Below the pieces are notes generated by a model, which worked only from the letters and a program-made list of their open reading frames with translations, was not told where the DNA came from and searched no databases. Shown here one piece after another: positions 6,183 through 51,498 of a DNA stretch of 64,000 bases (its first letter is position 1; each line of letters opens with the position of its first letter). This DNA comes from an uncultured Bacteroidales bacterium (lineage in GTDB: Bacteria; Bacteroidota; Bacteroidia; Bacteroidales; CAIWKO01): positions 142,691 to 206,690 of the forward strand of contig CAIWKO010000036.1 in NCBI GenBank assembly GCA_903913285.1, in the 5' to 3' direction. Position numbers and translations under genes: made by a program.

Positions 6183-6371
6183 TTGGCATCCCGTTCCGGC
6201 AGTTTCGCGGTGTGCTCCCTTTACTTCGCGGTGTGCTCCCTTTGTTTCGCGCTGCACTCCCTTTGTTTCGCGGTATGCTCCTTTTGTTTCGCGGTATGCT
6301 CCCTTTGTTTCGCGCTGCACTCCCTTTGTTTCGCGGTATGCTCCTTTTGTTTCGCGGTGCGTTCAGTTTGC
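6183..6371. repeat. 21-bp tandem array A1 (8-9 units, consensus TTCGCGGTGTGCTCCCTTTGT)
   Basis: TTCGCG unit starts at 6204, 6225, 6246, 6267, 6288, 6309, 6330 and 6351, all exactly 21 apart. The array ends in a 29-nt junction, gttcagtttgctttgtgaggggtgaacga (6361-6389). Confidence 0.95.
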
Positions 6372-6444
6372 TTTGTGAGGGGTGAACGATATTAGCAGAA
6401 TGACACACTTTTCTGAACACTCCCTGAACACTCCCTATAACAAC

Positions 6445-6906
6445 ACTTGAACCGACCAATACAACACCCGAATTGTTCAATACATAACTTGAACCGACCA
6501 TAACGATACCCGAATTGTATATAACGACACTTGAACCGACCATTACGATACTTGAATTGTTCAATACATAACTTGAACCGACCAATACAACACCCGAATT
6601 GTTCAATACATAACTTGAACCGACCATTACGATACCCGAATTGTTTATAACAACACTTGAACCGACCATTACGATACTTGAATTGTTCAATACATAACTT
6701 GAACCGACCATTACGATACCCGAATTGTTTATAACAACACTTGAACCGACCATTACGATACTTGAATTGTTCAATACATAACTTGAACCGACCATTACGA
6801 TACTTGAATTGTTCAATACATAACTTGAACCGACCATTACGATACCCGAATTGTTTATAACAACACCTGAACCGACCATAACGATACTTGAATTGTTCTT
6901 CGCGTA
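6445..6906. repeat. 21-bp-period tandem array B1 (22 half-units; 42-bp super-unit ACTTGAACCGACCATTACGAT+ACCCGAATTGTTTATAACAAC)
   Basis: The AC(T/C)(T/C)GAA unit start recurs from 6445 to 6886. That is 441 nt, or 21x21, so there are no indels across 462 bp. Confidence 0.95.
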
Positions 6907-7066
6907 CAAGTATTAACTCAATCCCAAACTGCAATTATTCTTTCTGCTTCATAAAATATACGTTTCGTTCATGTCATTGTTCATTTAATCGAAGTCAGAA
7001 TTCTTTTCGATTTTGTCAATGGTGTTTCCATACTTGTCAATGTCATTTCAGTGATGGTCAAGTTGT

Positions 7067-7444
7067 TTCGCGGCGTGGTCAAGTTGTTTCGCAATGCGTT
7101 CCCATAACATTTCGGTGTGCTCCCTTTGTTTCGCGCTGCACTCCCTTTGTTTCGCGCTGCACTCCCTTTGTTTCGCGGTGTGCTCCCTTTGTTTCGCGGT
7201 GCGCTCCTTTTGTTTCGCGGTATGCTCCCTTTGCTTCGCGGTGCGCTCCTTTTGTTTCGCGGTGTGCTCCCTTTGTTTTGCGGTGCGCTCCCTTTACTTC
7301 GCGGTGCGTTCCCTTTGTTTCGCGACGCGCTCCTTTTGTTTCGCGGTGTGCTCCCTTTGCTTCGCGGTGTGCTCTTTTTGCTTCGCGGTGCGCTCCTTTT
7401 GTTTCGCGGTGCGCTCCCTTTACTTCGCGGTACGTTCAGTTTGC
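7067..7444. repeat. 21-bp tandem array A2 (18 units, same family as A1)
   Basis: Unit starts run from 7067 to 7424 (357 = 17x21). One unit has a +2/-2 compensating offset near 7109-7130. The array is followed by a 29/29 identical copy of the A1 junction at 7434-7462. Confidence 0.95.
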
Positions 7445-18179: not shown

Positions 18180-19763
18180 TTAATTCTTCGAATACGATTC
18201 CAGATACTCTTTAACTTTTAGCACAATATCCTGCCTTGCTTTTTCGATATCCGCTTCCGTGTATGGATGTTCGGAAAATACCAGACTGTTGAATTCCTTA
18301 AGTTGCAATTTGCCTAAATACACAACCAAAGCTTTGCGGATTTTGGGTTCGATACCCACAAGTGCATGATAAAGCGTGAGTACATCAAAATCCTTAGCCA
18401 GATTTCGTAAACCTGTTTTATTGAGCTTCAGGATATGTTCCATCTTGACATTTACAATTCTTTTTTTAGGAACTTTTAGTTGCACAGGCTTTTTTATGGT
18501 TGCAACAGCTTTTTGGGTTTTTACGGGGGCAATTTCAGAATTTAAAGGTTCAACAGCTTTTTCGACATAATTTACCGGATGAAAATCTTTCAAACGGATC
18601 ATAAAATCGCTCAACACGTTCATGTAGTTGATGTATGCTTCGTAGGGCGTGTTATACGGATTGAAATATTTATGCACATCTCCGTCGGAGAACCATTTGG
18701 TACACATATAATAAAAATGATCGCTGGTTTGAAGATATTTCCAGTCGAGTTGTATCTGATCGTCGGGTGTATCTTTCACGATATTTTCGAGATCATACAG
18801 ATGATTGAACGCATCGTCCTGCAGTTCATTTCCGAGCCATGCCGTGAGGTCGCGTTCTTCGTCGGCCCACGAAATGGGGTACGGCACATGAATTTCGGCA
18901 ACAGGTTGAAGTTTTTCGGATAGTTCGGACGGTGTGTAGAAACCATAGTTTGAATTTGCAAATACCTGCCCCGGCAAAGCTTTCATAAATTCAAATATTC
19001 CGGTTTCAGTCCATTGATGTTCGCCGAAAGTTTCGTAATCCATAAAAAGGTTAACAGTTTCCTGAGCAGGATCTACATTGTTCAGCCAGCCAACAAATTT
19101 TTCGGTTGTCAGCGGCCATCCGTCCCAGCTTTGCTGCGAAAACCTGAAAGCGATATCATCGCTCAGCATAAAGTTCTTTAATAAAACTTTCAGTTTGGGG
19201 TTGATAGCGTTGCAATACATAAAATTCGGGCTTTTCCAGCCTAATACATGCTTGGCGCCTTCGGTCAATATGGTTTTGAAACCCATCTCGGCCACCATCT
19301 CTCCTATGCCGTCAGAATATATCAACTCGGTGTTACGAAAAGTGGTTGGCACTTTTTTAAAATACCTGATCACCTTTTCTTTTTGCGCTTCTGCCTGACG
19401 GAAAAATTCTGCCTTGCTTTTTAATGCAGATAACGAGTGGGAATAGGTTTCGGCAATAAACTCCACACAACCTGTTTCGGCCAAAGCAATAAAACTGTCG
19501 AGCACATCGGGAGTGTAGCGTTCAAACTGGTCGATAACGGTTCCCGAAAGCGAAAAGCTTACCTTAAATGCCGGTCCGAATTCTTTGATTAGGTTCAGCA
19601 AAACCTTATTCATCGGTAAATAGCATTTGTCGGCAATACGCCTAAGGATATAACGGTTTCGGTACTCGTCAAAATAGTAATGATCGGTCCCAATATCGAA
19701 AAAACGGTAGGTTTTTAACCGAAAAGGTTGATGTACCTGAAAATAAAAACAGATCGATCTCAT
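18180..19763 (-). CDS. Glycoside hydrolase family 57 (alpha-amylase/branching-type)
   Basis: N-terminus MRSICFYFQVHQPFRLKTYRFFDIG plus ETFGEHQW, typical of GH57. Sits in the conserved Bacteroidota cluster with GT4 and the debranching enzyme. Confidence 0.8.
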   Translation of the reverse strand: MRSICFYFQVHQPFRLKTYRFFDIGTDHYYFDEYRNRYILRRIADKCYLPMNKVLLNLIKEFGPAFKVSFSLSGTVIDQFERYTPDVLDSFIALAETGCVEFIAETYSHSLSALKSKAEFFRQAEAQKEKVIRYFKKVPTTFRNTELIYSDGIGEMVAEMGFKTILTEGAKHVLGWKSPNFMYCNAINPKLKVLLKNFMLSDDIAFRFSQQSWDGWPLTTEKFVGWLNNVDPAQETVNLFMDYETFGEHQWTETGIFEFMKALPGQVFANSNYGFYTPSELSEKLQPVAEIHVPYPISWADEERDLTAWLGNELQDDAFNHLYDLENIVKDTPDDQIQLDWKYLQTSDHFYYMCTKWFSDGDVHKYFNPYNTPYEAYINYMNVLSDFMIRLKDFHPVNYVEKAVEPLNSEIAPVKTQKAVATIKKPVQLKVPKKRIVNVKMEHILKLNKTGLRNLAKDFDVLTLYHALVGIEPKIRKALVVYLGKLQLKEFNSLVFSEHPYTEADIEKARQDIVLKVKEYLESYSKN

Positions 19764-19814
19764 AGTATGAATTATTTCTGAATAATTAGTTTTTTATAAA
19801 TCATTTTTTGAAAA

Positions 19815-19844
19815 CAGAATTCAGGAGTAAGAAGTCAGAATGGC
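19815..19844. repeat. Heptamer array (CAGAATT CAGGAGT AAGAAGT CAGAATGG), left arm of the inverted repeat around the four-helix-bundle ORF
   Basis: Read directly. It overlaps the stop codon and the last 7 codons (AILTSYS*) of the ORF. Confidence 0.85.
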
Positions 19845-20189
19845 CTTTGAATAGGCTTCTATTAATTTACTCACTTCTTCCATATCCTCAAATAAATTGT
19901 TATTATTACCGTAATCTAAATCTTTTGCTAGAATTAAATAATACCTGCATTCTTCTAGCGAACCCTGTGCAATATTCAAAAATCGTATTTTATCAGGTTT
20001 TCCTCTTTTTTTAAATCCTTCAGCAATATTTGCAGGAATTGATATAATGGCTCTTCTTAATTGTGACGTTAATCCAAACATTTCTTTTCGTGGAAATGCT
20101 TCACTAAAATTATAAATTGATATAACTAACTGATGAGACTTTTGCCAGACAATCAAATCTTGAAAACTTTTTGCAGGTATATTTGCCAT
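19821..20189 (-). CDS. Four-helix-bundle protein (23S rRNA intervening-sequence protein / S23p / Avd-like family)
   Basis: 122 aa. FQDLIVWQKSHQLVISIY...FPRKEMFGLTSQLRRAIISIPANIAEGFKKR...RFLNIAQGSLEECRYYLILAKDL is the family pattern as I recall it (W.K...L...IY....FP..E.....Q.RRA..S...NIAEG......D...F..IA.GS..E....L.L). Confidence 0.8.
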   Translation of the reverse strand: MANIPAKSFQDLIVWQKSHQLVISIYNFSEAFPRKEMFGLTSQLRRAIISIPANIAEGFKKRGKPDKIRFLNIAQGSLEECRYYLILAKDLDYGNNNNLFEDMEEVSKLIEAYSKAILTSYS

Positions 20190-20215
20190 ATTCTGTATTC
20201 TTTATTCTTTATTCT
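20185..20215. repeat. Heptamer array (ATTCTGT ATTCTTT ATTCTTT ATTCT), right arm of the inverted repeat around the four-helix-bundle ORF
   Basis: Read directly. It abuts and includes the ATG (20187-20189). Confidence 0.85.
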
Positions 20216-20224
20216 AAATAAAAT

Positions 20225-21514
20225 TTATTTCCCATTCAATAAGCTGTAATAAACATTTTTAACATGATTGGCGGCATTATCCCATTTCAGGTTATCCACC
20301 TCTTCTTTTCCGTATTTGCGGAACATCACTGACAAGGCATCGTAATGCAGCAATCCATAAATGGCATCGGCCATAGCGTCAATGTCCCAGAAATCAATTT
20401 TAAGAGCGTATTTCAGCACTTCCGATACTCCGGACTGTTTTGAAATAACTACCGGCACATTTGAGCGCATGGCTTCCAGAGGCGATATGCCAAATGGCTC
20501 CGAAACCGAAGGCATTACATACACATCGCTCAGGGCAAACATTTTATCTACTTCTTCGCCCTGCAGAAAGCCCGTGAAATGGAAATAGGGCGAAATGCGC
20601 AACTGCGCCACCCTTCGTATCATTTTAAACATCATATCGCCCGAACCGGCCATCACAAAACGAACATTCTTATCTCTTTCAATAACTTTATTTGCAGCTT
20701 CAACAAAATAATCGGGGCCTTTCTGAAACGTGATACGCCCTAGAAATGTAACTACCTTTTCTTTTACATTTTTCGCAACTTCCATAGCTTCGCCGCTTTC
20801 GGTAGGTTCAACGGCATTATGAACCGTAAAAACCTTATCGGGATCGATGCCATAGCGGTTGATCACAATATCGCGGGTGTAGTTGCTCACGGTGATGACT
20901 GCATCGGCAGCTTCCATTCCTTTACGTTCTATATCGTATACATTTTGATTCACATTTTCGCCCGAACGGTCGAATTCTGTTGCATGCATATGCACTACCA
21001 AGGGCTTACCGCTTACTTTTTTGGCTGCAATACCTGCAGGATACGTTAGCCAGTCGTGGGCATGGATTACATCGAACTGCTGCGAATTAGCGATGGCCGA
21101 TGCCACCAAAGCATAACGGGTAACTTCTTCCATCAGATTTTTGCCATATTTGCCCGAAAAGGTATACGATTTTGAAAAGACTATGGTCTCTGAATCCGTT
21201 TTATCATATTCTTTTTTAGATACAAAATTTTCGAACTCTTCTTCGCCCATATAGGGAACAAGGTTTGAGCCGATCTCTATATAGGTAAGCTGTTTCCAAT
21301 ATTCCTGATAAATGGAATTTGAAAAATCGATATTCACATCGCTGGCGTTGATGAGCCTCACAGCTTCCTGACTTTCGTCGCCATAGGCCTTTGGCACTAC
21401 AAAAAGCACTTCTACCCCATGTTTCAAAAGTCCTTTGGTAAGCCCGAAACAGGCAGTACCTAGTCCTCCGGTTATATGTGGCGGAAATTCCCAACCAAAC
21501 ATCAGTACTTTCAT
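20225..21514 (-). CDS. Glycosyltransferase family 4/5 (glycogen-synthase-like)
   Basis: MKVLMFGWEFPPHITGGLGTACFGL N-terminus and E-x7-E region (PSVSEPFGISPLEAM). Lies between the debranching enzyme and GH57 genes. Confidence 0.8.
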   Translation of the reverse strand: MKVLMFGWEFPPHITGGLGTACFGLTKGLLKHGVEVLFVVPKAYGDESQEAVRLINASDVNIDFSNSIYQEYWKQLTYIEIGSNLVPYMGEEEFENFVSKKEYDKTDSETIVFSKSYTFSGKYGKNLMEEVTRYALVASAIANSQQFDVIHAHDWLTYPAGIAAKKVSGKPLVVHMHATEFDRSGENVNQNVYDIERKGMEAADAVITVSNYTRDIVINRYGIDPDKVFTVHNAVEPTESGEAMEVAKNVKEKVVTFLGRITFQKGPDYFVEAANKVIERDKNVRFVMAGSGDMMFKMIRRVAQLRISPYFHFTGFLQGEEVDKMFALSDVYVMPSVSEPFGISPLEAMRSNVPVVISKQSGVSEVLKYALKIDFWDIDAMADAIYGLLHYDALSVMFRKYGKEEVDNLKWDNAANHVKNVYYSLLNGK

Positions 21515-21529: not shown

Positions 21530-23485
21530 TTATAATGAATTATTTTTATAATAATCTATCAGATAATCGATGCGCAGCAATTCGGCCACGCTCCATGCCT
21601 GCGAAGGAGCTCCGCCGGGTTTATGAGGCGGATCGCCGTCGTAAACTTCGGAAACGGAACCAATGCCGTGTTCGAACATCACCGGTTCGAAATTGTTATA
21701 CAGGCGCTGCACATGAGCAATGCCGCCTTTGCCGTGTATCTTCAAATAACCTTCCACATAATGTCCGAGCAGCCAGGGCCACACTGTGCCCTGATGGTAG
21801 GCCGAATCGCGGGTCATCATATCGCCTTCATAAACACCTTTATATTCTGACGATTTGGGCGATAAGGTGCGGATGCCTCTCGGGGTGAGCAGTTCGCGTT
21901 CGGTTATGTCGAGTATGAGTTTTCGTATTTGCTCGCTTACCGGACTGTATGGCAAAGAAGCAGCAAACAGCTGGTTCGGCCTTACCGACCAATCTTTATA
22001 GTCTTCAAACACATAATCACACAAATAGCCTTTATCTTTGTTCCAAAAGGTTTCTTTAAACGCTGCCGGAATTGTGCATGATATTTCATTCCAATCGTTC
22101 AGGAATTCTTCGTCTCCGGCCAATTTAGCAACTTCTATGGAGAACATCACTGCATTATACCACAACGCATTTATTTCAACATCCAGCCCTATGCGGGGCG
22201 TTACGGCTTTATCAAAAACAACTGCATCCATCCAGGTAAGAGCTTTACCGGGTTCTCCGGCATAGATCAACCCGTTTTCCTGCATTTTGATATTGTATTG
22301 GCAACCATTACGGTAGCCGTATAATATCAGTTTCATCTTTTCGCCGTATTCATTCCATATCTGCGCTTGGGTTTGGGTATGAGCAGCATATTTTTGTAGA
22401 GCCCAAAAGAACCAAAGAGGAGCATCGACTGAATTATAGGCTGTGTTATCGCCGTTGCCCAAATTAGGAAACAAGGGTCCTTTCAATTCCGATATCATCG
22501 TGTCGATAACCGACTTACAGGTTTTATCGTCACCAAGAGTTAAGGTTAAACCCGGCAAGGAAATAAAGGTGTCGCGTCCCCAACGACCAAACCAGGGGAA
22601 ACCGGCTATAACTTCTGTTTTATTGTTTTTATGCACAAAGAACTGTTGTGCCGAATTGACCAAGCAGTTCTTGTAGCTATCGCGGGGCAACCTCCGTTTA
22701 ACTTCATTGGCATATATCGTTTCGAGCAACATCGGGTCGACTTCTTCCAAGCCGGCCGAGAAAATAATGCTTTCACCTTTTTCGATCGGTATTTCGAAAA
22801 AGCCCGGCACATACAAATCTTCCAGATAATCGTAGCCGCGCTCTTTCTCTTCTTTATATTCTATGTTGTAATACCAATGCGGAACATGGGTGTATTCAGT
22901 CTCTTTCGAGAATTGCATATAAACATTTGAATAGCCTTCGTACATTTTGCAGATAATACCGTTTGGGGCATCTTTATAACGGGTATCGTTGTCGATATTT
23001 GCTTTGGTGAGGCTGTGCATGTTGCGGAATGCCAGAAAAGGTTTAAACTTCAGTTTGGTGGGCGAATTGGCTTCTTCCAGAGTGTATTTTATCAACACCC
23101 TGTCGCTTTCGATAGAGAACAGCATTTCTTTGGCCAGAATAACGCCTCCGACTCTGTAACGGATCTTGGGTATGGGGTCGGTGATGATTTCGCGGACGTA
23201 TTTATGGCCTTTGGGATTGAAAACACCCGGTTTATATTGATGTATCCCCAGATTGAATTCGGCTTCGTGCTGTATAATGGTTTCGTCGAGGGTAGATAAC
23301 AACACGTGGTTGCCCTCGTCGACATGCGGCTGCGGGGCTATCAGCAAACCATGATATTTGCGGGTGTTGCAGCCAATAATGGTGGTGGTTGCAAAAGCTC
23401 CTGCCCTGTTCGATCTGATGAACTCTCTGCTTAATGAAAACTCAAGATTCACAAGCTGTTCTTTATCAAATTTAATATAACTCAT
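21530..23485 (-). CDS. Glycogen debranching enzyme (N-terminal GDE domain plus amylo-alpha-1,6-glucosidase)
   Basis: 651 aa. REFIRSNRAGAFATTTIIGCNTRKYHGLL N-terminal motif and C-terminal (alpha/alpha)6 region with GFPWFGRWGRDTFISL and HQGTVWPWLLG. Confidence 0.8.
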   Translation of the reverse strand: MSYIKFDKEQLVNLEFSLSREFIRSNRAGAFATTTIIGCNTRKYHGLLIAPQPHVDEGNHVLLSTLDETIIQHEAEFNLGIHQYKPGVFNPKGHKYVREIITDPIPKIRYRVGGVILAKEMLFSIESDRVLIKYTLEEANSPTKLKFKPFLAFRNMHSLTKANIDNDTRYKDAPNGIICKMYEGYSNVYMQFSKETEYTHVPHWYYNIEYKEEKERGYDYLEDLYVPGFFEIPIEKGESIIFSAGLEEVDPMLLETIYANEVKRRLPRDSYKNCLVNSAQQFFVHKNNKTEVIAGFPWFGRWGRDTFISLPGLTLTLGDDKTCKSVIDTMISELKGPLFPNLGNGDNTAYNSVDAPLWFFWALQKYAAHTQTQAQIWNEYGEKMKLILYGYRNGCQYNIKMQENGLIYAGEPGKALTWMDAVVFDKAVTPRIGLDVEINALWYNAVMFSIEVAKLAGDEEFLNDWNEISCTIPAAFKETFWNKDKGYLCDYVFEDYKDWSVRPNQLFAASLPYSPVSEQIRKLILDITERELLTPRGIRTLSPKSSEYKGVYEGDMMTRDSAYHQGTVWPWLLGHYVEGYLKIHGKGGIAHVQRLYNNFEPVMFEHGIGSVSEVYDGDPPHKPGGAPSQAWSVAELLRIDYLIDYYKNNSL

Positions 23486-27611: not shown

Positions 27612-27700
27612 ATTGGTGATTAGCGATTGGCGATTAGCGATTGGATTGCCATGTTAGGGGTTTAGCTATTTAGCTGTTTAGACGTTTAGGGGTTTAGGTG
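27612..27700. repeat. Micro-tandem arrays: five 7-mers (ATTGGTG ATTAGCG ATTGGCG ATTAGCG ATTGGAT), then six 8-mers (GTTAGGGG TTTAGCTA TTTAGCTG TTTAGACG TTTAGGGG TTTAGGTG)
   Basis: Read directly (27612-27646 and 27653-27700). They lie in the spacer upstream of sucD. Confidence 0.9.
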
Positions 27701-28550: not shown

Positions 28551-28575
28551 AAAAAAGGGCGTATCCCCCACGCCC
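28551..28575 (-). terminator. Rho-independent terminator (GGGCGT/ACGCCC stem)
   Basis: On the minus strand: GGGCGT-gggggat-ACGCCC followed by TTTTTT. Downstream of the gene ending at 28643. Confidence 0.7.
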
Positions 28576-28580
28576 TCACG

Positions 28581-28622
28581 TACCAGATACCAGATACCAG
28601 ATATCACAGACCATTTACCTAT
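28581..28622. repeat. Heptamer array TACCAGA x3, TATCACA, GACCATT, TACCTAT
   Basis: Read directly. It lies between the stop of 28643..30376 and its terminator. Confidence 0.85.
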
Positions 28623-31632: not shown

Positions 31633-31688
31633 TACCTTATACCAGATATCCTGTACCAGATATCCTATACCAGTTACCATTTACCTAC
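31633..31688. repeat. Heptamer array of 8 units (TACCTTA TACCAGA TATCCTG TACCAGA TATCCTA TACCAGT TACCATT TACCTAC)
   Basis: Read directly, in perfect 7-nt register. The last unit overlaps the stop codon at 31685-31687. Confidence 0.9.
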
Positions 31689-32425: not shown

Positions 32426-32537
32426 AGCTTTATGGTTTTTAGTGAAAATAATAAATATTTTAAATTATTGATTTATATTACTTTAAAAATGTTATTTGCA
32501 TTTGAATTTTAAATAACGGGTATGAACTGCATTTTTG

Positions 32538-32747
32538 CGAAGGTCAATCTTCTATCAGCGAAAGTCGATCTTCGGATACCGAAGGTCAATCTTCTATCAG
32601 CGAAAGTCGATCTTCGGACATCGAAGGTCAATCTTCTATACGCGGGGGTCGATCTTCGGATGCCGAAGGTCAATCTTCTATACGCGGGGGTCGATCTTCG
32701 GATGCCGAAGGTCAATCTTCTATACGCGGGGGTCGATCTTCGGACAC
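32538..32747. repeat. 21-bp-period tandem array C (10 half-units = 5 x 42 bp; CGAAGGTCAATCTTCTATCAG + CGAAAGTCGATCTTCGGATAC)
   Basis: Unit starts run from 32538 to 32727 (189 = 9x21), with no indels. The shared core is GTC(A/G)ATCTTC. The second half-unit has an imperfect dyad around TCGA. Confidence 0.95.
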
Positions 32748-32899
32748 CCAAAATGCATCCTCTGCCCATCATCATCTATTTAAATTCTTTCAAAGAACAA
32801 TTTCTGTTTCGCAACTTGTAAATACAAAAGTATAATGAAACATTGCCACGATGCTTGGCAAAGATGGGGTGAAAATTACGGTTTTTTGTGGCAATTCTT

Positions 32900-33637: not shown

Positions 33638-33705
33638 AAGAAACCATCGTGTACTTTATATATAACGTTATTTGTGGAAAAAGATTGGTTTTTGGGTAAG
33701 AAATT

Positions 33706-33740
33706 AGAAGCCAGAATTCAGGAGGCAGAATTCAGAATGG
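33706..33740. repeat. Heptamer array (AGAAGCC AGAATTC AGGAGGC AGAATTC AGAATGG), left arm of the inverted repeat
   Basis: Read directly. Nearly identical to the left arm at 19815-19844. Confidence 0.85.
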
Positions 33741-33977
33741 GGAGCGGGATATAAGGCAAATTAAAGACTAATGACTCGTGGCTATCGGTTTGCTAAGATT
33801 AAAAATATTATTTGATAATTTGTATTAAAATAAAATATATCTTTGAGTGATAAAAAAAAGGATAACATCACAGCTATTATTTAGGTATAAATAACACCAG
33901 TGGTACAGCACAAACCTTTGGTTTAATTATAAAAATGAGAAGTTGTAATTTACACTAGACTCTAAAAACTAACTAAA

Positions 33978-34925
33978 ATGAGAAAAATAGCAATTATTTC
34001 TTTGATATTCTTACTTTTCGCAGGATGTAAAAAGGATAAGTATGGAAACCTAGTGCATAAAATTAAATACACTTCTGCAAAAGAATCTAAAGCTAAAAAC
34101 AAAGGAAAAGGTATTGCAGAGCTCTATTATACTCAATTTGGAGATTATATTACAAGCATAACACCAGGTAGTTTTATTGGTAATTTTGACATGGTACGCA
34201 TATACGGAACTACCACTTCTTCCGACAACCATCCTGTATTCATGACATTAATCCAACCCAACTCTACCGATGGAAATATTCGTTATGCTGATTTTTCAAA
34301 CAATGCTGAAATTACCGTGACCCCTACTTTATGTGGTCCATTCGTAAATTGCAATGATGATGGAACGGGTGGGTGTTTTAAGGATGATGCTACTTTTAAA
34401 TTACTACAGGTTTGTTTGCATAATATTAGTCAGGTAATAAATTTGCCAGTTCAATATAACGGCGTTAATTTATCTCAGTTTAATGGTCAATATGGACAGG
34501 GCCTATACTCCAGCGATTCGGTAAAGATCGGGAATATTCTAACGGTTGATATGTACCCTCTAATTGGAAAAATTAGCGACACTTCACAATTTTATGGCCA
34601 CCCTTTGACTTTTTATTTTGGAATGACTGATAATACCACTCTTTATTATTCTGGACCTTCAATGCAGTTTCCGACCTCACTAAACGAAACTCCAAATCTG
34701 GATATGCCATACCCTTTTGTGTGGAGCAATAAATTTACTGAATGGACGCTAAAGAGCCCTGCAAATAAAGAAACCATAACAATTACTTCGACAATAGGTT
34801 TCGACAATGAGAACCTGATCCAGATTTATGCGGGAGCAGATAACGTGCCCTACACTAGCGATGATATAATAGTATATGCTCCGAATTTTTGGGATAGAAT
34901 TTATATTAATGTAACAACAGAGTGA
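33978..34925 (+). CDS. Hypothetical lipoprotein (315 aa)
   Basis: MRKIAIISLIFLLFAGCKKD lipoprotein signal. No other motif recognised. Confidence 0.6.
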   Translation: MRKIAIISLIFLLFAGCKKDKYGNLVHKIKYTSAKESKAKNKGKGIAELYYTQFGDYITSITPGSFIGNFDMVRIYGTTTSSDNHPVFMTLIQPNSTDGNIRYADFSNNAEITVTPTLCGPFVNCNDDGTGGCFKDDATFKLLQVCLHNISQVINLPVQYNGVNLSQFNGQYGQGLYSSDSVKIGNILTVDMYPLIGKISDTSQFYGHPLTFYFGMTDNTTLYYSGPSMQFPTSLNETPNLDMPYPFVWSNKFTEWTLKSPANKETITITSTIGFDNENLIQIYAGADNVPYTSDDIIVYAPNFWDRIYINVTTE

Positions 34926-34981
34926 TATAAAAAAACAAAACCCTGACTTTATATTGCTCTATAGCTCCCATTTTGCCATAA

Positions 34982-35030
34982 CTTCCGTATTCTGAGTTCT
35001 GACTTCTGACTTCCGTCTTCCGTCTTCGTG
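34982..35030. repeat. Heptamer array (ATTCTGA GTTCTGA CTTCTGA CTTCCGT CTTCCGT CTTCGTG), right arm of the inverted repeat
   Basis: Read directly. 34989-35020 is complementary to 33707-33738. Confidence 0.85.
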
Positions 35031-35086: not shown

Positions 35087-36427
35087 ATGAATAACAGAAA
35101 AATATTCAGCCTTACGCTTGTGATGCTATGCTTATTAATGCCCGTCAGCATGTTGTCGTGCAAATGGTTCAAAAGCGGTGGCGGCGACAAAAAGATGAGC
35201 ATCGCGGCCGTAATATCGATGCCCGACATAGTGCGCAGCCTATCGGCCCGTCCCTCCGACTCCACCCTCAACAAAGCCCTCGATATGGCACAGCTCATGC
35301 AGAAAAACGACTCTGCAGATTTCATGAAACTGTTCGAAAAAGCCTGGAACAAAACCGCAAACAACATACGCATGGTAACGCTGTTCGCCCGGGCCGGCAA
35401 CACGAATATAGCGCTCAATGCATCCGATCAGGAAGTGATACAGCAACTGAACAAAGCCGTCGACGTTATTATCGATCGCAGCATTTTTGTAACCCAAACC
35501 CGCCTCGAGAGTCTGGGCTGCAAAGTGGTTGGCATTCACAAAGCCAAACAACGCGCACATATCAACATCGAACTCGAAGAGGTTGCCAACCCGCGTCAGG
35601 TGCTCAACCTTATACAATACGCGGGCAACCTGCAGTTTTGGGAAACCTACGAATATCATGACATCTACAGCCTGATGGTTGAAGCCGACGCTAAGGCAAA
35701 AGCCCTTTTGGAACTGGCCGACAGCAACGCGCCCAAAGATCCCGGAAAAGCCGCGAAAACCAACATGAGAGATGTTTTGCCCAACAACAGCCGACCCAAC
35801 ACCACCGAAGTAACTGCAGCCGAAAATCCGCTGTTTGCCTTGTTGGTTCCGACTCTGGTTCAGGACGAAAAAGGGAACTACTATCCCCAGCGCGGTCCTT
35901 GCGTGGGCTATTGTCACATTGCCGACACTGCCAAACTAAACCATCTGCTGCGCCTTCCGCAAATTGCGCGTGTGTTTCCAACCGAACTGCATTTTGCCTG
36001 GGGCAAACAGCCCGCCGAAAAAGACAAAAACACCCTGGCTTTGATAGCGCTGAAAGCCGATCGCAATGGCAAACCCGCCATGGATGTTGCCGGTATGATA
36101 ACCGATGCCCGTCAGGAATATAACAGCAGCAAACAAATTGAGGTTAGCATAGCAATGAACTCTGAAGGAGCCGGCATCTGGAAAGATCTTACAGCCAATA
36201 ACATCGGCAAATCGTTAGCCATAGTGCTCGATGCTTATGTATACTCCTATCCCACGGTTCAGGCAGAAATACCCAACGGCCGCTCCAGCATTACGGGCAA
36301 TTTCACCGAAACCGAAGCCAAAGACCTTGCCTCTATACTGAAAGCAGGCAAACTCCCTGCCCGCATCATCGTTGTGGATGCCGTCACCCACGACAAAGAC
36401 GGAAACATTATCCCGAACGGGAAATAG
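35087..36427 (+). CDS. SecD/SecDF periplasmic (P1) domain-only lipoprotein, diverged and lacking all RND-type TM segments
   Basis: Lipoprotein-like N-terminus (...PVSMLSCKW). Collinear with the SecDF N-terminal periplasmic region as I recall it: ...SMPDIVRSL...LNKALDMAQ...DFMKLFEKAW...RLESLG...INIELEEV...VLNLIQYAGNLQFWETYE...SSITGNFTETEAKDLASILKAGKLPARI. It then stops where SecDF TM2 would begin. Confidence 0.55.
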   Translation: MNNRKIFSLTLVMLCLLMPVSMLSCKWFKSGGGDKKMSIAAVISMPDIVRSLSARPSDSTLNKALDMAQLMQKNDSADFMKLFEKAWNKTANNIRMVTLFARAGNTNIALNASDQEVIQQLNKAVDVIIDRSIFVTQTRLESLGCKVVGIHKAKQRAHINIELEEVANPRQVLNLIQYAGNLQFWETYEYHDIYSLMVEADAKAKALLELADSNAPKDPGKAAKTNMRDVLPNNSRPNTTEVTAAENPLFALLVPTLVQDEKGNYYPQRGPCVGYCHIADTAKLNHLLRLPQIARVFPTELHFAWGKQPAEKDKNTLALIALKADRNGKPAMDVAGMITDARQEYNSSKQIEVSIAMNSEGAGIWKDLTANNIGKSLAIVLDAYVYSYPTVQAEIPNGRSSITGNFTETEAKDLASILKAGKLPARIIVVDAVTHDKDGNIIPNGK

Positions 36428-36464
36428 GTAATAGGTAACAAGTAATAGGTAATAGGTAACTAAC
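36426..36464. repeat. Heptamer array AGGTAAT AGGTAAC AAGTAAT AGGTAAT AGGTAAC
   Basis: Read directly. It begins inside the TAG stop codon (36425-36427). Confidence 0.9.
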
Positions 36465-36475
36465 TTTAGGCACCT

Positions 36476-36498
36476 GCCCGTCCGGTCAGGCGGGCTTT
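36476..36498 (+). terminator. Putative terminator hairpin (GCCCGTC/GGCGGGC)
   Basis: 7-bp stem with one G-U pair (36476-36482 with 36489-36495), followed by TTT. Flanked by a direct repeat ACTTTAGGCAC. Confidence 0.4.
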
Positions 36499-36576
36499 AA
36501 GTACTTTAGTTCACTTTAGGCACTTTTTTTATTAACTTTGTCCTTTCAAATTTTTAACAATTAAACCCCATACCGT

Positions 36577-41002: not shown

Positions 41003-41496
41003 TACTCCTTGAAAGTATTATTTTTATAAAGAACCACGATCTTTTCAATCTCGGAGGAATTTGATGCAGGTATATTTTGCTGTTTTTCATCAGCAATTTG
41101 TTTATTTTCAACTTTCTCCACGGGTTCTATAGATACCTGAACCTCTTTTTCCGGCTCTTTTTTGTCTTCTATAAGAACCTTCACTTCATTTATTCCTTCT
41201 ATAATAGGATTGCTTTCTATTTTCACCTCTGGAATAATTTTATCTTCTTTAATTTGCTCAGCAGTTTCAAACAGATCAATCTGAGAAGTTTTTAACATAG
41301 GTCCGTTACCTTGCATCAGCCATTCAGGATTAATATCCTTGAATTGTTGTAGCATTTTAAGTATAAGGTCTAAACTAGGTAAATTTCTACCAGACATAAT
41401 ATGCGACATGCTCGATCGCTGAATCCCTATTTCATCTGCAAATTTTGACGGACTCAGATTTTTAATTTTTAGAACTAAAAGTATTCGGTCAACCAT
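40987..41496 (-). CDS. XRE-family helix-turn-helix domain protein
   Basis: N-terminal LSPSKFADEIGIQRSSMSHIMSGRNLPSLDLILKMLQQF is a Cro/C1-type HTH. The tail is low-complexity and E/K-rich. Confidence 0.7.
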   Translation of the reverse strand: MVDRILLVLKIKNLSPSKFADEIGIQRSSMSHIMSGRNLPSLDLILKMLQQFKDINPEWLMQGNGPMLKTSQIDLFETAEQIKEDKIIPEVKIESNPIIEGINEVKVLIEDKKEPEKEVQVSIEPVEKVENKQIADEKQQNIPASNSSEIEKIVVLYKNNTFKEYHPGL

Positions 41497-42280
41497 AATT
41501 ACAAAGTTAAATAATAAGTTACAAAGATAATCTTTTTTGAATTCACAACAGTTATTTTGTTAATATTACCTTTGTAAACTTTTTAAAATGACGATTTATT
41601 TAAACTATTACCTGACGTCAGATCATTACAAACCTTTTTATCAATGAATTAAACAATTTAACTATCTGGCAATAATATTAGTCATAAAGTAGCTAATATT
41701 ATTAATGTAATACTTCATAAGATTATTCTTAATTACTGATTTAAAGTTGTATAAACAAATAATAATATTCATTAATGTACAAAATACAATTATTACAATC
41801 ATAACATCACTAAGTTTACATAAATAACTTTACCAATAAAGATTACATTTGTAACCTTAATTGTAAAATACTAAATATCAGTATTACTTTTATATTAGTA
41901 TACATTTGTAATTTTTCATTTACCTGAATTAATTTTGTAATTTTATACCTAACCAAATACATAAAGTGATTTATGGGATCAATTATTAATAGCATTATGA
42001 AGCTGATTTCATTTATAAGGTCTCTCTCCAATTTAAAGTTTGACCTTCTCCCCTTTTAATTAGTGAGATTGAATAATATTACTTTTTCCAAAAGGCTTTA
42101 TTAAATAAACTATAATTAATCCAGACCTAATCATAGTATCGTATGACTAAAAATTACAGAAAGTGTCTTAAAAACGCTTAAATGAAGTCCATTTTTTAGC
42201 ATGATTCTCTATGCGAAATGAATTTTTGAGCGCATTTCAGAGAGAAAGATGAATAAATTCAGAAAGGGGGAACTATAGAT

Positions 42281-45217
42281 TTATTTTTTCTCTATGGTCT
42301 GATAAATGATTTTTTGAATTTCAGTACGAATTCCTGATGAAAGTAATTTATTGTTTACTGAAGAAGGATAAGTCCGATTTGATAAAAACACATAAACCAA
42401 ATGATATTTTGGGTCTACCCAAATATAGGTACCAGTAAACCCTGAATGACCATAGCTTTCAGGCGAGGCTTCTTTACAAGTTGGGCCACTACTTTTATCT
42501 CTCGCAGGTTTATCAAAGCCCAGGCCTCTCCTGTTGTCTAAAAACTGGTATGAGGTGAATTTCTTAACAGTTTCAGGTTTAAAAAAACGAGTACCGCCAT
42601 ATTCGCCTTCCTGTAAAAGCATTTGTAAAAGAATCGCCAGATCATTGGAATTTGAAAAAAGACCTGCATGTCCGCTTATTCCACCCAGCATTGCCGCCCC
42701 GGGATCGTTCACATCACCTTGCAATGTCTGTTTTCTGAAAACAGTATCAATTTCTGAGGGCACAATTCGCGACAGATCGAAATAATTTCGGGGCTGATAA
42801 CATAGAGTTGTTAAGCCTAGTGGTTCATAAAAGTTCTCTTTTACATATTTATCAATACCTTCGTTTACCAACCTTTCAACAATGTATCTTAGCATAATAA
42901 AACCCAGATCACTGTATGTATAGCTCTTTAAAATCCGCAATTCAGAGGTTTTAATTGCCCGGAAAATAGTATCCTTATAGTTCTTTTTGATATAGAGTTT
43001 TTCGGCTACCCTATATGGAAACTCATCCGATTTTTGTGTGTGATAAATATTAGTATCGGGTATCCCTTTTTTCAAGGTACGGTCATAGAATGGAATCCAG
43101 GCTTTTAACCGGGCCTGATGCGTCATAACATCCTTAATAATCAGACCTGCTTTGTTGGAACTGTCCAATTCGGGCAAATACCTTACAAGACTCGAATCAA
43201 GGGATATTTTACCTTGTTCATAAAGTTTCATGATAGAAATTGTCGTTGCACAAACCTTGGTAACAGAGGCTAAATCGTAAAGATCCGTATTCTTAACTGG
43301 AATTAGCTTATCATAGGTGTGGTAACCAAATGATTTTTGATAAACAACAAGGCCGTCTTTTGCTATCAATATTTGACATCCCGGATAAATAGAGTCCTTA
43401 ATACCTTGGTTGGCAATGGAGTCAATTTTAATTAAACTGCGGCTTTCAATTCCGGCAAATTCGGGATAGGTGTAGCCAAAACGGATCTTTTTTGTTTCAA
43501 TGCCTGTATTAACTGGAAAAAATTGCGAAGCTGTTACGGGAAGTTTTCCGTTTACTGAAATTCCCCCAAAAATTGCTTCTGCACTGGCCTTTTGTGAAAA
43601 AATATTACTTTGATAACCGACTAAAACCGCACTTATTTTACTTGTATCTGTGAGTTTTGATAAAGAATATGGGTTAGCCAGAAGATTAATTATGATCCTC
43701 TTGGTAAGTTTCATTTCATTAATAAACTTCAGTATATCATCAGATAATCCATAATTTCCGATTCCCGAAAACGAGGATTGATTAATTGTAATTATCAGAA
43801 GGTTCGTTTGTAATAATTGCTGTTTTAAATCCGGAATTTTATCTGCAGCAAAATCTTTACCGAATTTGAAATGTTGCATTTGGGCATAATTATCAAGCAT
43901 CTCGTCAAATGAAATGCTATCTGAAGAATTAAATGTAATTGAAGCAATTTTTTGATTTTCGAGATTTTTTATCGGTAATATACCAAGATTGTTTTTCACA
44001 ATGGTAATGGAAGCTTCATGTAGCTGAAGATTCAGCATATCTGATTTATGGTCGTTCAAATCATTATATAAATTTTTCAATGCTATAGGTTTCAATCTCG
44101 ACAGCCCGGCTTTATATTTATACAGCAATACCTTACGACAACGACTATCTATGAATTCCTGAGTGATGAGCCCTTTTGATATTGCACTTTTAATTGTATC
44201 AATTGCTACCGGAACATTATCGGACATGAGTAAAATATCACTTCCTGCCAACAAGGCCTTTAATTCCAGCTCACCAGGCTTAGCCTTTTCGCTAATACCT
44301 TTCATACCTAGAGCATCCGTAAATATCAAACCTTTATAACCTAATTTTTCGATTAACAGATCGTGCACAACTTTCACCGACAACGAGGATGGTTGACCGG
44401 TAGTAGTATCCAATGTAGGAATGAAAAGATGTGCCACCATAACAGAAGAAATTCCGTTACGAATTAACTCTTTAAACGGAAAAAGATCGATACTATCAAT
44501 GATCTGTTTTGAATGAGTTATGGTTGGTAATGTTTTATGCGAATCTTTATCAGTATCGCCATGACCCGGAAAATGCTTTGCTGTGGCAATGATCCCCATA
44601 TCCTGCAGCCCCTTCATATATAATATGGCTTTGGAAGCTACATTATTTCTGTCTTCGCCGAACGATCTGTAATTAATAACAGGGTTATTAGGATTAGAGT
44701 TAATATCAGCTACCGGGGCAAAGTTTATTTGAATTCCCATGCGCTTACATTGAAGCGCTATTTTTCCCCCCATTCTATATATCAGGTTATTATCCTGAAT
44801 TGCTCCTAATGTCATTTGTCTTGGGAAAGAAACCGTACTGTCTTTCAAGCGCATTCCCAATCCCCACTCTCCATCTATGGCAATAAGTAGAGGCGTTTTT
44901 GCCAGAGACTGCCAATAGTTGGTATATCTGGCCTGATTAACAGGACCACCCTGAAAAAATGCAATTCCACCAATATTATATTTTGTGATCTGTTCGGTTA
45001 CTTTGTTATTTTCTTCAAGAGTTTTGTTTGAATGAGCTGACACCATAAAAAGTTGGCCAATACGTTCGTCGGGTGTTAGTTTATGCATAACTGAATCAAC
45101 CCAATGCGTCGCTTTTGAAGGATCATCAATAGGAGTGTGATTTAGTGTCTGAATCCTTGGAAGAAACAATGAAAAAATTGGTAGTAAAAGAAACAGTATC
45201 GTTTTTAATTTTATCAT
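42281..45217 (-). CDS. Fusion of a GH3 beta-N-acetylhexosaminidase-like domain and a class C beta-lactamase-family serine hydrolase
   Basis: GH3 motifs (KHFPGHGDT, FTDALGMKG) lie in the N-terminal half. S-x-x-K (ASVTKV) and an AmpC/PBP4-like region lie in the C-terminal half. Confidence 0.8.
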   Translation of the reverse strand: MIKLKTILFLLLPIFSLFLPRIQTLNHTPIDDPSKATHWVDSVMHKLTPDERIGQLFMVSAHSNKTLEENNKVTEQITKYNIGGIAFFQGGPVNQARYTNYWQSLAKTPLLIAIDGEWGLGMRLKDSTVSFPRQMTLGAIQDNNLIYRMGGKIALQCKRMGIQINFAPVADINSNPNNPVINYRSFGEDRNNVASKAILYMKGLQDMGIIATAKHFPGHGDTDKDSHKTLPTITHSKQIIDSIDLFPFKELIRNGISSVMVAHLFIPTLDTTTGQPSSLSVKVVHDLLIEKLGYKGLIFTDALGMKGISEKAKPGELELKALLAGSDILLMSDNVPVAIDTIKSAISKGLITQEFIDSRCRKVLLYKYKAGLSRLKPIALKNLYNDLNDHKSDMLNLQLHEASITIVKNNLGILPIKNLENQKIASITFNSSDSISFDEMLDNYAQMQHFKFGKDFAADKIPDLKQQLLQTNLLIITINQSSFSGIGNYGLSDDILKFINEMKLTKRIIINLLANPYSLSKLTDTSKISAVLVGYQSNIFSQKASAEAIFGGISVNGKLPVTASQFFPVNTGIETKKIRFGYTYPEFAGIESRSLIKIDSIANQGIKDSIYPGCQILIAKDGLVVYQKSFGYHTYDKLIPVKNTDLYDLASVTKVCATTISIMKLYEQGKISLDSSLVRYLPELDSSNKAGLIIKDVMTHQARLKAWIPFYDRTLKKGIPDTNIYHTQKSDEFPYRVAEKLYIKKNYKDTIFRAIKTSELRILKSYTYSDLGFIMLRYIVERLVNEGIDKYVKENFYEPLGLTTLCYQPRNYFDLSRIVPSEIDTVFRKQTLQGDVNDPGAAMLGGISGHAGLFSNSNDLAILLQMLLQEGEYGGTRFFKPETVKKFTSYQFLDNRRGLGFDKPARDKSSGPTCKEASPESYGHSGFTGTYIWVDPKYHLVYVFLSNRTYPSSVNNKLLSSGIRTEIQKIIYQTIEKK

Positions 45218-49337: not shown

Positions 49338-50564
49338 ATGAAATCTGCAGAAACTATTGTTATAGGCAGCGGACCCGCGGGTTTGTCGGCTGCCATTAGC
49401 TGTAAGCAGAAGCCTGTGTTGGTTTTGGAAAAGAATACATCGGCAGGAAAAAAACTACTGATTGCAGGTTCCGGAAGATGTAATTTAACGCATGACAGCG
49501 ATATTAAAGATTTTTTTGATCATTACGGTTTAAATGCCCGTTTTTTGAAGACCGCGTTGCTTAACTACTCGAACCGACAATTGATAGACTTTTTTAAAGA
49601 AAAAGGGCTGGATATTTATATCGATAAGAACGGAAAAGTGTTTCCCGAATCGGATAGTTCGGCAAATGTACTCAGTGTCTTGCTAAAATGCTGCAAAGAA
49701 AACGAAGTGGAGGTGGTTTATAAGCAAAATGTTATTAGCGTAAAGCATAAAAACGGTCAATTTGCGGTTCGCACACCCACCGAATCTTACTTATGCAAAA
49801 ATATTATCGTTGCCACAGGTGGAAAATCTTATGTCAACACGGGTTCGACCGGAGACGGGTATGAAATTGCCCGGTCGTTCGGGCATACTATCGTTACGCC
49901 TAAACCTGCCCTCACTCCCGTTTACAGCAATTCTCTGAATTTGGTTCAACTGGCAGGCGTTACGCTGCAAAATCTGTTGATATGTCTGTACCGTAAAAAT
50001 AAGAAGATAGCCGAACACAAGGGCGATGTGGTTTTTACGCATAAGGGACTTTCGGGGCCCGGCATTTTGGATTTTTCGAGGCAGTTCGAAGCGGGCGACC
50101 TGCTTAAACTTAATTTCACAGGTTTGCATAGCGACGATTTCCGCCATTATTTTATCGCGGCAGTTGAAATGGATGGTAAATCAACTGTGCAATCATTCCT
50201 CAAACGTTTTGATATTCCAAAGAGCCTGATACAAACAGTTCTGGGTAAATATAAAATAGACCCCACCGATAACCTTGCTGAAATTACCAAAGCGGAACGC
50301 ATCACCATTACAAACGACTTTTGCGAGTTCGAAGTGGCTGTTACGCGTATGGGAGGCTTCGATGTAGCAATGGTTACGGCAGGCGGGGTGCATCTGAGCG
50401 AGGTTTCGTCGCGAACGATGGAATCGAAACTTGTGTCGGGATTGTATTTTGCGGGCGAGGTGCTGGATATAGACGGCGACACGGGAGGCTATAATCTGCA
50501 GGCTGCTTTTTCTACCGGACATCTGGCGGGGAAAAGCATCTCAAATAGGGGTTTAGGGGTTTAG
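49338..50564 (+). CDS. HI0933-family NAD(P)/FAD-dependent oxidoreductase
   Basis: GSGPAGL dinucleotide fold at the N-terminus and C-terminal GLYFAGEVLDIDGDTGGYNLQAAFSTG. The last codons (RGLGV*) are encoded by the octamer repeat array. Confidence 0.8.
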   Translation: MKSAETIVIGSGPAGLSAAISCKQKPVLVLEKNTSAGKKLLIAGSGRCNLTHDSDIKDFFDHYGLNARFLKTALLNYSNRQLIDFFKEKGLDIYIDKNGKVFPESDSSANVLSVLLKCCKENEVEVVYKQNVISVKHKNGQFAVRTPTESYLCKNIIVATGGKSYVNTGSTGDGYEIARSFGHTIVTPKPALTPVYSNSLNLVQLAGVTLQNLLICLYRKNKKIAEHKGDVVFTHKGLSGPGILDFSRQFEAGDLLKLNFTGLHSDDFRHYFIAAVEMDGKSTVQSFLKRFDIPKSLIQTVLGKYKIDPTDNLAEITKAERITITNDFCEFEVAVTRMGGFDVAMVTAGGVHLSEVSSRTMESKLVSGLYFAGEVLDIDGDTGGYNLQAAFSTGHLAGKSISNRGLGV

Positions 50565-50670: not shown

Positions 50671-50704
50671 CTTATACCATAGACCACATACAGCCAAATA
50701 AATT

Positions 50705-51376: not shown

Positions 51377-51388
51377 GGGGGAGTTCAA

Positions 51389-51448: not shown

Positions 51449-51498
51449 TCAAAAACCAAACAAATCATGAGAGTTTTTTTTAAGATTCTTTTATATTT

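Follow-up and report, generated by a model that had tools for sequence, protein, structure and literature searches.

A four-helix-bundle gene between complementary heptamer arrays in a Bacteroidales glycogen operon: a probable free-standing cassette of the intervening-sequence type

How does a short gene of the S23p (four-helix-bundle) family, enclosed by two inverted arrays of heptamers, come to lie inside a glycogen operon, and what could the arrays do there? The question is raised by a 64,000-nt stretch of contig CAIWKO010000036.1 from an uncultured Bacteroidales bacterium (hereafter the window), in which a 122-aa open reading frame (ORF) of this kind separates a GT4 gene from a GH57 gene. 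We read the block as a free-standing cassette of the intervening sequence (IVS) type, which would be transcribed by read-through and closed by pairing of its two arms into a stem that conceals the translation signals and is probably cleaved by RNase III, while the arrays would form the ends of a DNA unit; our probability for this reading is roughly 0.6. Judged from the homologous loci described below, the block represents a class of cassettes, each a small, promoterless and occasionally mobile S23p gene between two complementary arrays of ~4–6 heptamers. What is new here is the IVS-type element outside rRNA together with a family-wide rule for its arms; the anatomy of the rRNA element of Coxiella was already known.

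The positions of the ORF and of its GT4 and GH57 neighbours, as well as their shared minus strand, agreed in the sequence and the ORF list with an earlier reading of this DNA (hereafter the initial annotation). On this strand, a gene for a glycogen debranching enzyme (GDE; 21530–23485) is followed by GT4, the 122-aa ORF and GH57, with 9 nt between the GT4 stop codon and the 5' arm of the block and 50 nt between its 3' arm and the GH57 start (Table 1). The ORF product matched PF05635 (E = 6.7e-37; 126.4 bits against a cut-off of 33.8; residues 10–111) and TIGR02436 (119.9 bits; cut-off 24), and a phmmer search against the PDB returned as the nearest solved relative the Xanthomonas S23p protein XCC0516 (2GSC, E = 7.5e-21), an entry of five chains described as a homopentamer, besides 2RLD (E = 1.6e-5). 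By these matches the ORF is a member of PF05635/TIGR02436, with a four-helix bundle predicted from homology, and a protein homologue search gave at least 8000 matches, many of them at 70–95% identity. The setting is that of protein genes rather than of 23S or 16S rRNA: the cassette is flanked by GT4 and GH57, no rRNA or other Rfam family was found in 17–24 kb at E ≤ 1 or across the whole window, and the genes within 3.5 kb on either side encode the debranching enzyme, GT4, GH57 and a 309-aa product without assignment. PADLOC gave no match, a terminator scan found none on the coding strand, and a sigma-70 promoter scan, with a tool that does not model Bacteroidota promoters, showed no enrichment.

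Avd, the accessory protein of diversity-generating retroelements (DGRs), is pentameric and belongs to the same four-helix-bundle superfamily, and the ORF product matched its models weakly (PF22296, 27.4 bits; NF033474, 28 bits; PHROG 3206, E = 6.7e-8). However, the first two scores lie far below the respective cut-offs of 40 and 80 bits, the neighbouring genes encode glycogen enzymes, no adjacent reverse transcriptase or template/variable repeats were found, and we know of no Avd genes described with complementary heptamer arms.

The arms themselves were defined by three approaches. Tandem Repeats Finder (TRF) reported 20189–20215 as a period-7 array (TATTCTT, 3.9 copies), an inverted-repeat search recovered the arms as 19816–19841 and 20190–20215 (26 nt, 73% complementary), and addition of the GGC/GCC pairs across a 2-nt bulge raised the count to 22 Watson-Crick pairs, the same number as obtained with RNAduplex. 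The inverted heptamer arrays reported in the initial annotation are thus present, with essentially the extents given there, although the 3' arm reaches to ~19814; the 22 Watson-Crick pairs and the bulge stand, whereas the additional G-U pair does not exist on the coding (minus) strand, where the transition mismatch is A·C. The mismatches do fall as doublets, which correspond to the two variable bases at the end of each heptamer. The 5' arm is the version of the family-wide (CAGRAKT)n array in the window, and the 3' arm encodes the last seven codons (AILTSYS), includes the stop codon and extends 7–10 nt past it, so that the start codon (20187–20189), these codons and the stop codon all lie within the arms, as had been noted before. 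The arm duplex was calculated at −18.0 kcal/mol against −7.6 ± 2.5 kcal/mol for shuffled arms (RNAduplex; z = −4.2, 1/1000), and among 9.6 million placements across the window, complementarity of at least 19/26 at a spacing of 300–450 nt was reached just 19 times.

To place the block among its relatives, 80 loci at 62–82% protein identity were fetched from genomes and metagenome-assembled genomes, with array counts made on 62 of them; their labels name Bacteroidota, Nitrospirota, Verrucomicrobiota, Acidobacteriota, Cyanobacteria, Desulfobacterota, Planctomycetota, Ignavibacteriota, Calditrichota, Gemmatimonadota and a Peptococcaceae bacterium. Nearly all fetched loci carry an upstream array of CAGGAGT, CAGAAGT or CAGAATT units, often ending caga|ATG, and a 3' array of ATTCTGA, CTCCTGA or CTTCTGG units, which begins ~7 codons before the stop codon, continues past it and is phase-locked to it in the position matrix of homologues. 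With a strict rule the 5' array was scored in 44/62, the 3' array in 53/62 and both in 39/62 loci, rising to nearly all when the distance was relaxed, and each arm holds ~4–6 units. Arms from the same locus paired better (−43.2 kcal/mol) than arms combined across loci (−36.5; p = 9e-5) or shuffled arms (−26.7; p = 4e-9), with a median duplex of 28 bp, and the variable doublets covaried between the two arms (overlap 0.579 vs 0.399; permutation p ≤ 1e-4). Most of the other family members compared are bracketed by complementary heptamer arrays just as the window copy is, which answers a question posed in the initial annotation. In the closest informative pairs, dN/dS was 0.04–0.12, by which the protein is under strong purifying selection; because synonymous sites are saturated between phyla and the arm consensus is nevertheless kept, persistence of the arms is not neutral.

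The arrays also leave traces in the predicted proteins. The C-termini of homologues, (A/S)IL(N/T/D)SxS, are translated ATTCTNN arrays, and over-extended gene calls start with peptides such as MRIQEPESRIQN, which are translated AGAATNN arrays. Gene callers extended P0016, P0046, P0076 and P0090 through the 5' array in this manner, giving artificial N-termini such as MRIQEPESRIQNGH or SELRIKNAEYRMKN, an annotation error that the arrays cause systematically. As a separate observation, in two Calothrix loci (L023 and L032) the simple 3' arm is replaced, 7–240 nt past the stop codon, by 11–16 units of the 14-mer GGCAGAATTCAGGAG, after which a 42-nt repeat containing the complementary CCTCCTGAATTCT occurs three times. 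An Rfam search of 20 homologous loci gave no matching family apart from an unrelated tRNA and a TwoAYGGAY match; the latter RNA (RF01731, 48.5 bits) lies at 278–436 of the Peptococcaceae contig L079, ~2 kb upstream of the cassette, and is probably unrelated as well.

The same design recurred in distant subfamilies, sampled as 24 non-redundant loci from viral-collection contigs together with others from RefSeq plasmids (33–78% mutual identity). Here the arms are again complementary, and the units are different ones: TAGTCTG/CAGACTA, CTGTAGG/CCTACAG, GGGCTTT/AAAGCCC, GCTWTCG/CGAWAGC and GGGAGTA/TACTCCC, with AAGGTTY/RAACCTT in Riemerella. Duplexes within a locus reached −59.2 kcal/mol against −40.7 kcal/mol across loci, in 19 loci the cognate 3' flank was one of the three best among 24 (permutation p ≤ 1e-4), and the best period was 7 in 22/26 flanks on each side (p = 1e-17 vs 1/9), two loci having period 8 in both flanks. 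Read along the coding strand, G exceeded C in the 5' flank of 53/62 close and 18/24 distant loci, and C exceeded G in the 3' flank of 41/62 close and 23/24 distant loci. Across the loci compared, complementarity, 7-nt periodicity and polarity are thus the conserved features, while the unit sequence varies by subfamily. The close subfamily was essentially absent from the viral contigs, which makes carriage by phages unlikely.

With these comparisons, two simpler explanations can be dismissed. One holds that the arms are a chance or low-complexity inverted repeat, or that the ORF is an Avd gene; chance is contradicted by the shuffle statistics and ruled out decisively by the design conserved across homologous loci, and we consider this pair of explanations extremely improbable and reject it. 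The other holds that the arrays are host-generic heptamer litter, resembling the short tandemly repeated repetitive (STRR) sequences of cyanobacteria, which are intergenic heptamer direct repeats, and that the gene merely happens to lie between two of them. Intergenic regions of the window are indeed full of other heptamer and octamer arrays, and such arrays are abundant in some Bacteroidota and cyanobacteria. However, arrays of the AGRA/TYCT type are confined to three places in the 64 kb (the cassette, a second bracket and one solo array; Table 1), their unit family accompanies the protein subfamily across many phyla whose GC contents differ widely, cognate complementary units of another kind are found in each of the other subfamilies, and the 3' array keeps its phase relative to the stop codon. 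We regard the litter explanation as very improbable and reject it too.

Whether the block was inserted can be read from relatives of this junction. The cassette is present at this site in the window, L081 and L085/L086 and missing in L087–L093. A strain with 99.3% identical GT4 has the cassette in this position, its 5' array lengthened by a single heptamer, AGAATTC, and GT4/GH57 junctions of 82, 7, 7 and 11 nt at 92, 89, 89 and 80% GT4 identity, respectively, are empty and free of arrays. Compared by eye, the GH57-side spacer of the window shows homology to the 3' portion of the 82-nt empty-site spacer of L087. Relatives with an uninterrupted GT4–GH57 junction, which the initial annotation had suggested looking for, therefore exist, and none of 80 further, more distant GT4 relatives carried a family member next to GT4. 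On this evidence the block is a lineage-specific insertion, and the proposal of a footprint of insertion fits in that the arrays sit at both ends of the segment missing from relatives.

Beyond this junction, cassettes occupy intercistronic gaps of unrelated, tightly linked operons (gyrB|gyrA, 3-hydroxyacyl-CoA dehydrogenase|thiolase, aroA|aroC, cas4|cas1 and nuoJ|nuoL), and the closest protein relatives of the window copy (82–87% identity) lie in a sugar-transferase cluster, an hdr/mvh-type operon and a capsule cluster, all unrelated loci. The upstream gene is co-oriented with the cassette in 58/62 loci (p = 2.6e-13 vs 0.5; p = 1.5e-4 vs 0.75) and the downstream gene in 53/61. Typical cassettes of cultivable hosts include NPUN_RS35280 of Nostoc punctiforme PCC 73102 (plasmid pNPUN02), AVA_RS28115 of Trichormus variabilis ATCC 29413 (plasmid C) and the four-helix-bundle gene between gmk and nadD of Flavobacterium columnare. 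Cassettes can also be nested: in one of the closest relatives (L221, 2281–3085), an intact AGAATNN-type cassette interrupts a four-helix-bundle ORF of another subfamily, of which only the first 34 and last ~37 codons are left, together with its own G-rich 5' and complementary C-rich 3' heptamers. ORF-less derivatives retain both arms, a remnant start codon and a remnant C-terminus with the stop codon. In L217, a remnant at ~2085–2125 (AAAGCCATTCTTAATTCTGTATCCTGA), ~100 nt upstream of an intact cassette, corresponds to the last codons and 3' arm of a further copy, an arrangement suggestive of cassettes in tandem or with partial deletions.

The closest known counterparts are the ORF-bearing IVSs of 23S rRNA, such as that in helix 45 of Coxiella burnetii; they occur in Leptospira as well (PMC4990558). 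IVSs of this type take the place of the loop of helix 9, 25 or 45 in a 23S (or 16S) rRNA gene. In Coxiella, AGAAGA, two or three GACAGAT and one GACAGAA precede the S23p ATG, the repeat number is strain-variable, the termini form a 28-bp stem, RNase III cuts have been mapped to the middle of this stem, and the cut removes a Shine-Dalgarno-like region (Warrier et al. 2016, PMC4990558). The same paper cites RNase III excision for the IVSs of Leptospira and Salmonella, as well as older proposals of past or present mobility of IVSs with the ORF as a mobility factor, and reports the Coxiella ORF as decaying and apparently untranslated (PMC4990558). The likeness extends to an ORF of ~120 aa, heptamers directly 5' of the ATG (GACAGAT/GACAGAA there, ACAGAAT here), variable copy number between strains, a ~28-bp stem of complementary termini around the ORF, a total of ~400–440 nt, and sporadic, horizontally acquired occurrence without a transposase. 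Unlike the Coxiella element, the window cassette lies between two protein genes of an operon, the predicted cut would separate mRNA cistrons rather than fragment rRNA, and the ORFs of the family examined here evolve under strong purifying selection. Taken together, the Coxiella anatomy, the bracketed family members, the empty relatives and the arrays at the insert ends support the free-standing IVS-like cassette put forward in the initial annotation.

For the IVS-type cassette we propose the following mechanism. The cassette would have been inserted into an intercistronic gap of the glycogen operon rather than into an rRNA helix, and transcription would reach it by read-through from GT4. Within the RNA, the G/purine-rich 5' arm, which would hold the ribosome-binding region as well as the AUG in this subfamily, would pair with the C/pyrimidine-rich 3' arm, which would hold the stop codon, and the long imperfect stem would close off the ORF and restrict its translation. 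By analogy with the IVSs of Coxiella, Leptospira and Salmonella, the stem would offer RNase III a double-stranded substrate, from which we infer processing at the window locus; a cut in the stem would release the cassette RNA and separate the GDE–GT4 portion of the operon mRNA from that of GH57. At the DNA level, the arrays would also mark the ends of a unit that is gained or lost.

Several observations weigh against this mechanism. The window stem is weak, its 22 pairs being interrupted by four internal loops with a longest unbroken helix of 6–7 bp, and the locus ranked only 43rd of 58 by arm-duplex strength, strong stems being found, for example, at L012 and L044. The folding check suggested in the initial annotation failed, in that the global minimum free energy (MFE) fold of 19780–20260(−), 481 nt, lacks the arm stem (z = +0.33), and because of this the thermodynamics of the window locus alone proves nothing. 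MFE folds of homologues were enriched in long-range pairs (26.2), but the background was high, at 15.8 pairs when the arms were shuffled and 11.5 when they were replaced, and we take this signal as weak support. The filled/empty evidence at this site is a single comparison at no more than 92% GT4 identity, and the exact ends are blurred. The window copy may moreover be decaying or under relaxed selection, because six of the seven nucleotide differences from the L085/L086 ORF are non-synonymous and one is synonymous, the GT4 proteins being 99.3% identical. No match was obtained when metagenome contigs were scanned for CAGR arrays behind a 23S helix-45 flank. An RNA-strand signature was not found either: G·U cells numbered 55 against 43 A·C cells, fixed-register base-for-base covariation in 16 loci was not significant (65.1% vs 62.6%; reached by 94/1000 permutations), and sense and antisense duplex energies showed no significant difference in the close or the distant set. 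As no RNA-specific signature was found, the complementarity could equally be a DNA-level property. Finally, RNase III alone leaves the conserved 7-nt periodicity with changing unit sequence unexplained, and it is mainly for this reason that two rivals involving recognition by a protein are kept. Neither of them excludes the IVS-type cassette.

The first rival is a DNA-level element of the foldback or miniature inverted-repeat transposable element (MITE) type, in which the arrays would be terminal inverted repeats of reiterated sites bound by a protein, possibly by the S23p pentamer as an adaptor for a host recombinase, and RNA pairing would be a by-product. Foldback and MITE-like elements, as well as repetitive extragenic palindromic (REP) sequences and bacterial interspersed mosaic elements (BIMEs), are known for inverted short-repeat ends of variable number and short ORF-less derivatives, the REP/BIME palindromes being mobilised in trans. 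The cassettes resemble them in their variable inverted tandem-repeat ends, ORF-less forms, intergenic and often intra-operonic location and possible transcript hairpins. Arrays at the ends of a segment missing from relatives, the retention of both ends by ORF-less derivatives, the nested insertion and the close relatives at unrelated sites all accord with such an element; so do arms that covary by subfamily but not base for base, the lack of a G·U excess or strand bias in energy, and 4–6 periodic units per arm, which would fit binding by a multimer. The idea of the ORF as a mobility factor has, as mentioned, already been raised for the IVSs. However, no catalytic transposase or recombinase was identified in the cassettes, whose sole ORF is a 122-aa helical bundle without a nuclease fold, or in association with them, although such an enzyme may still act in trans from another part of the genome. 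No target-site duplication is evident in comparison with the nearest empty site, at which GT4 is 92% identical and the spacer has diverged. Different sites were not seen to share near-identical copies, dS is saturated, and a search of plasmid DNA for near-identical copies returned only orthologues of 80–84% identity, which argues against a recent burst; unlike MITE-like families, the cassette copies are old and diverged, and their cargo is always one small, non-catalytic protein family. Polarity, the start and stop codons within the arms and the 94% co-orientation of the upstream gene point instead to a constraint at the transcript level, and RNase III cutting has been demonstrated on the homologous stem of Coxiella. 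We consider this rival unlikely, yet serious enough to be kept.

A related comparison is that with integron cassettes, which have a single 3' attC and require an adjacent integrase and attI. Both are promoterless single-gene units, inserted co-directionally, expressed from upstream and associated with imperfect inverted-repeat recombination sites, but the cassettes described here have two complementary heptamer arrays, no integrase, and scattered sites in ordinary operons.

The second rival is autoregulation. The S23p homopentamer would bind heptamers in its own mRNA, one unit per subunit in the manner of TRAP, as well as ORF-less arrays, and would thereby control the translation or stability of neighbouring genes, arm pairing being the protein-free state. 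This would account for a 7-nt period that is kept while the units change and for ~4–6 units per arm, given the homopentamer of 2GSC. The 5' arrays lie directly next to the ribosome-binding site or AUG, purifying selection on the protein is strong, ORF-less arrays of matching unit lie nearby in the same genomes, and the related Avd belongs to the protein–RNA complex of DGRs. Against it, binding to single strands alone needs no complementary second arm, and the S23p of Coxiella is apparently not made. A partial precedent exists in the TAACTGA heptamer arrays of Beggiatoaceae, cyanobacteria and Bacteroidetes, which lie just upstream of start codons and have been proposed as regulator binding sites (PMC4679880). 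These share with the cassette arms an intergenic position with ends near start codons, the phyla, variable copy number and a suspected post-transcriptional role, but they are direct arrays without a specific flanked gene or complementary partner, whereas the cassette units are AGAATNN/NNATTCT; the paper makes no mention of 23S, S23 or four-helix-bundle genes (PMC4679880). On balance, autoregulation appears quite unlikely, and the IVS-type cassette remains our preferred one. A description of the free-standing form or of covarying arms was not found in the openly searchable literature, outside of which subscription-only papers fall, or in Rfam.

The features of the locus and the related arrays elsewhere in the window are collected in Table 1.

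Table 1. Coordinates of the cassette, its host genes and further arrays of related type in the window.
Feature	Position	Strand	Basis
Upstream host gene, GT4/GT5-type glycogen-synthase-like glycosyltransferase	20225–21514	−	Pfam Glycos_transf_1, Glyco_transf_4, Glyco_transf_5
Cassette (arm-ORF-arm), approximate, ~402 nt, missing from relatives at the GT4/GH57 junction	19814–20215	−	Empty junctions
5' arm, AGAATAA AGAATAA AGAATAC AGAAT, abuts ATG	20190–20215	−	Sequence, TRF, inverted repeat
S23p / 23S_rRNA_IVP / four-helix-bundle ORF, 122 aa	19821–20189	−	PF05635, TIGR02436
3' arm, GCC ATTCTGA CTTCTTA CTCCTGA ATTCTGT	19814–19844	−	Sequence
Downstream host gene, GH57 family enzyme	18180–19763	−	Pfam Glyco_hydro_57, E 8.3e-67
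Second 5'-type array, AGAAGCC AGAATTC AGGAGGC AGAATTC AGAATG then GGGAGC	33699–33749	+	Sequence
Matching 3'-type array, GCTCCCAT..GCCAT..ATTCTGA GTTCTGA CTTCTGA CTTCCGT CTTCCGT	34964–35029	+	Sequence
Solo array, (TACTTCT)x6.3, CTTCTTA-type like one unit of the cassette 3' arm	50626–50669	+	TRF; relation to cassette uncertain

The second 5'-type array ends in CAGAATGGGGAGC and retains a remnant start codon without a four-helix-bundle ORF. Its pairing with the matching 3'-type array was calculated at −49.2 kcal/mol against −29.5 ± 4.1 kcal/mol for shuffles, and the bracket encloses 240 nt of AT-rich DNA and a 315-aa ORF (33978–34925) with a hydrophobic N-terminus (MRKIAIISLIFLLF), for which Pfam gave no match. 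Other arrays of period 7, 8 or 14 lie almost exclusively between genes (27612–27698, 28575–28613, 31633–31678, 36420–36526, 50546–50676, 51381–51444, 52083–52254 and 54008–54118); their units (ATTRGYG, TTAGGGGT, TACCAGA, AATAGGT, AGGTAAC, TACTTCT and GGAAGTT) differ from those of the cassette, and no cognate four-helix-bundle gene is present in the window. Nested inverted arrays make up a 1-kb non-coding region at 51381–52345, in which (ATTRGTG)n at 51414–51446 pairs almost perfectly with its complement at 52080–52116 (−33.3 vs −12.8 ± 3.1 kcal/mol). These inner arms enclose 17 copies of a 21-nt tandem repeat (AGCCGGCTTAGAATATTTTGT; 51680–52040), and weaker GAGTT-type arrays lie outside.

Further repeats were observed in the window. 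Between ORFs, ~1.2 kb of tandem repeats (6202–7431) consists of 21/63-nt units (GTTTCGCGGTGTGCTCCCTTT) at 6202–6359 and 7063–7431 with 42/126-nt units at 6445–6898 between them, and the ORFs listed across this region are probably spurious. A 21/42-nt tandem array of ~5–10 copies (CGAAGGTCAATCTTCTATAC...; 32537–32748) lies upstream of an opposite-strand gene for a LuxR/GerE-type regulator, and ~0.8 kb at 41496–42281 without an ORF of at least 90 aa contains several 26-nt inverted repeats (at least 19/26) at 300–450 nt spacing and has no Rfam match. The GH57 protein carries a C-terminal extension of ~80 residues with a weak FliG_C match (E = 2.6e-5), which is equally faint in orthologues.

These results bear on an old puzzle, as 23S IVSs and their conserved ORF have been without a functional explanation since the early 1990s. 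The family PF05635/TIGR02436 is very large and annotated only as 'four helix bundle protein', and a 2024 paper still described the S23p protein as functionally uncharacterised. In the light of the cassettes described here, the rRNA IVS would be one of the places in which members of a wider class of small cassettes, found in many phyla, have landed. Going a step further, S23p and the heptamer arrays might form a co-evolving protein–repeat system, in which each pentamer recognises its own 7-nt unit in RNA or DNA, driving the spread and/or regulation of cassettes, ORF-less hairpins and rRNA IVSs, and in which much of the unexplained heptamer litter of Bacteroidota, cyanobacteria and other phyla descends from or is serviced by such elements; we offer this as a tentative idea that is possible, if somewhat doubtful. 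Some intergenic heptamer arrays may in any case be relics of cassettes, and arrays translated by gene callers give rise to spurious N-terminal extensions. For the host, cassettes may have the effect of splitting or re-tuning the mRNAs of operons, among them gyrB–gyrA, cas4–cas1 and the glycogen genes, and with cultivable hosts at hand (Nostoc punctiforme, Trichormus variabilis, Flavobacterium columnare and Riemerella) the old IVS question is now experimentally approachable.

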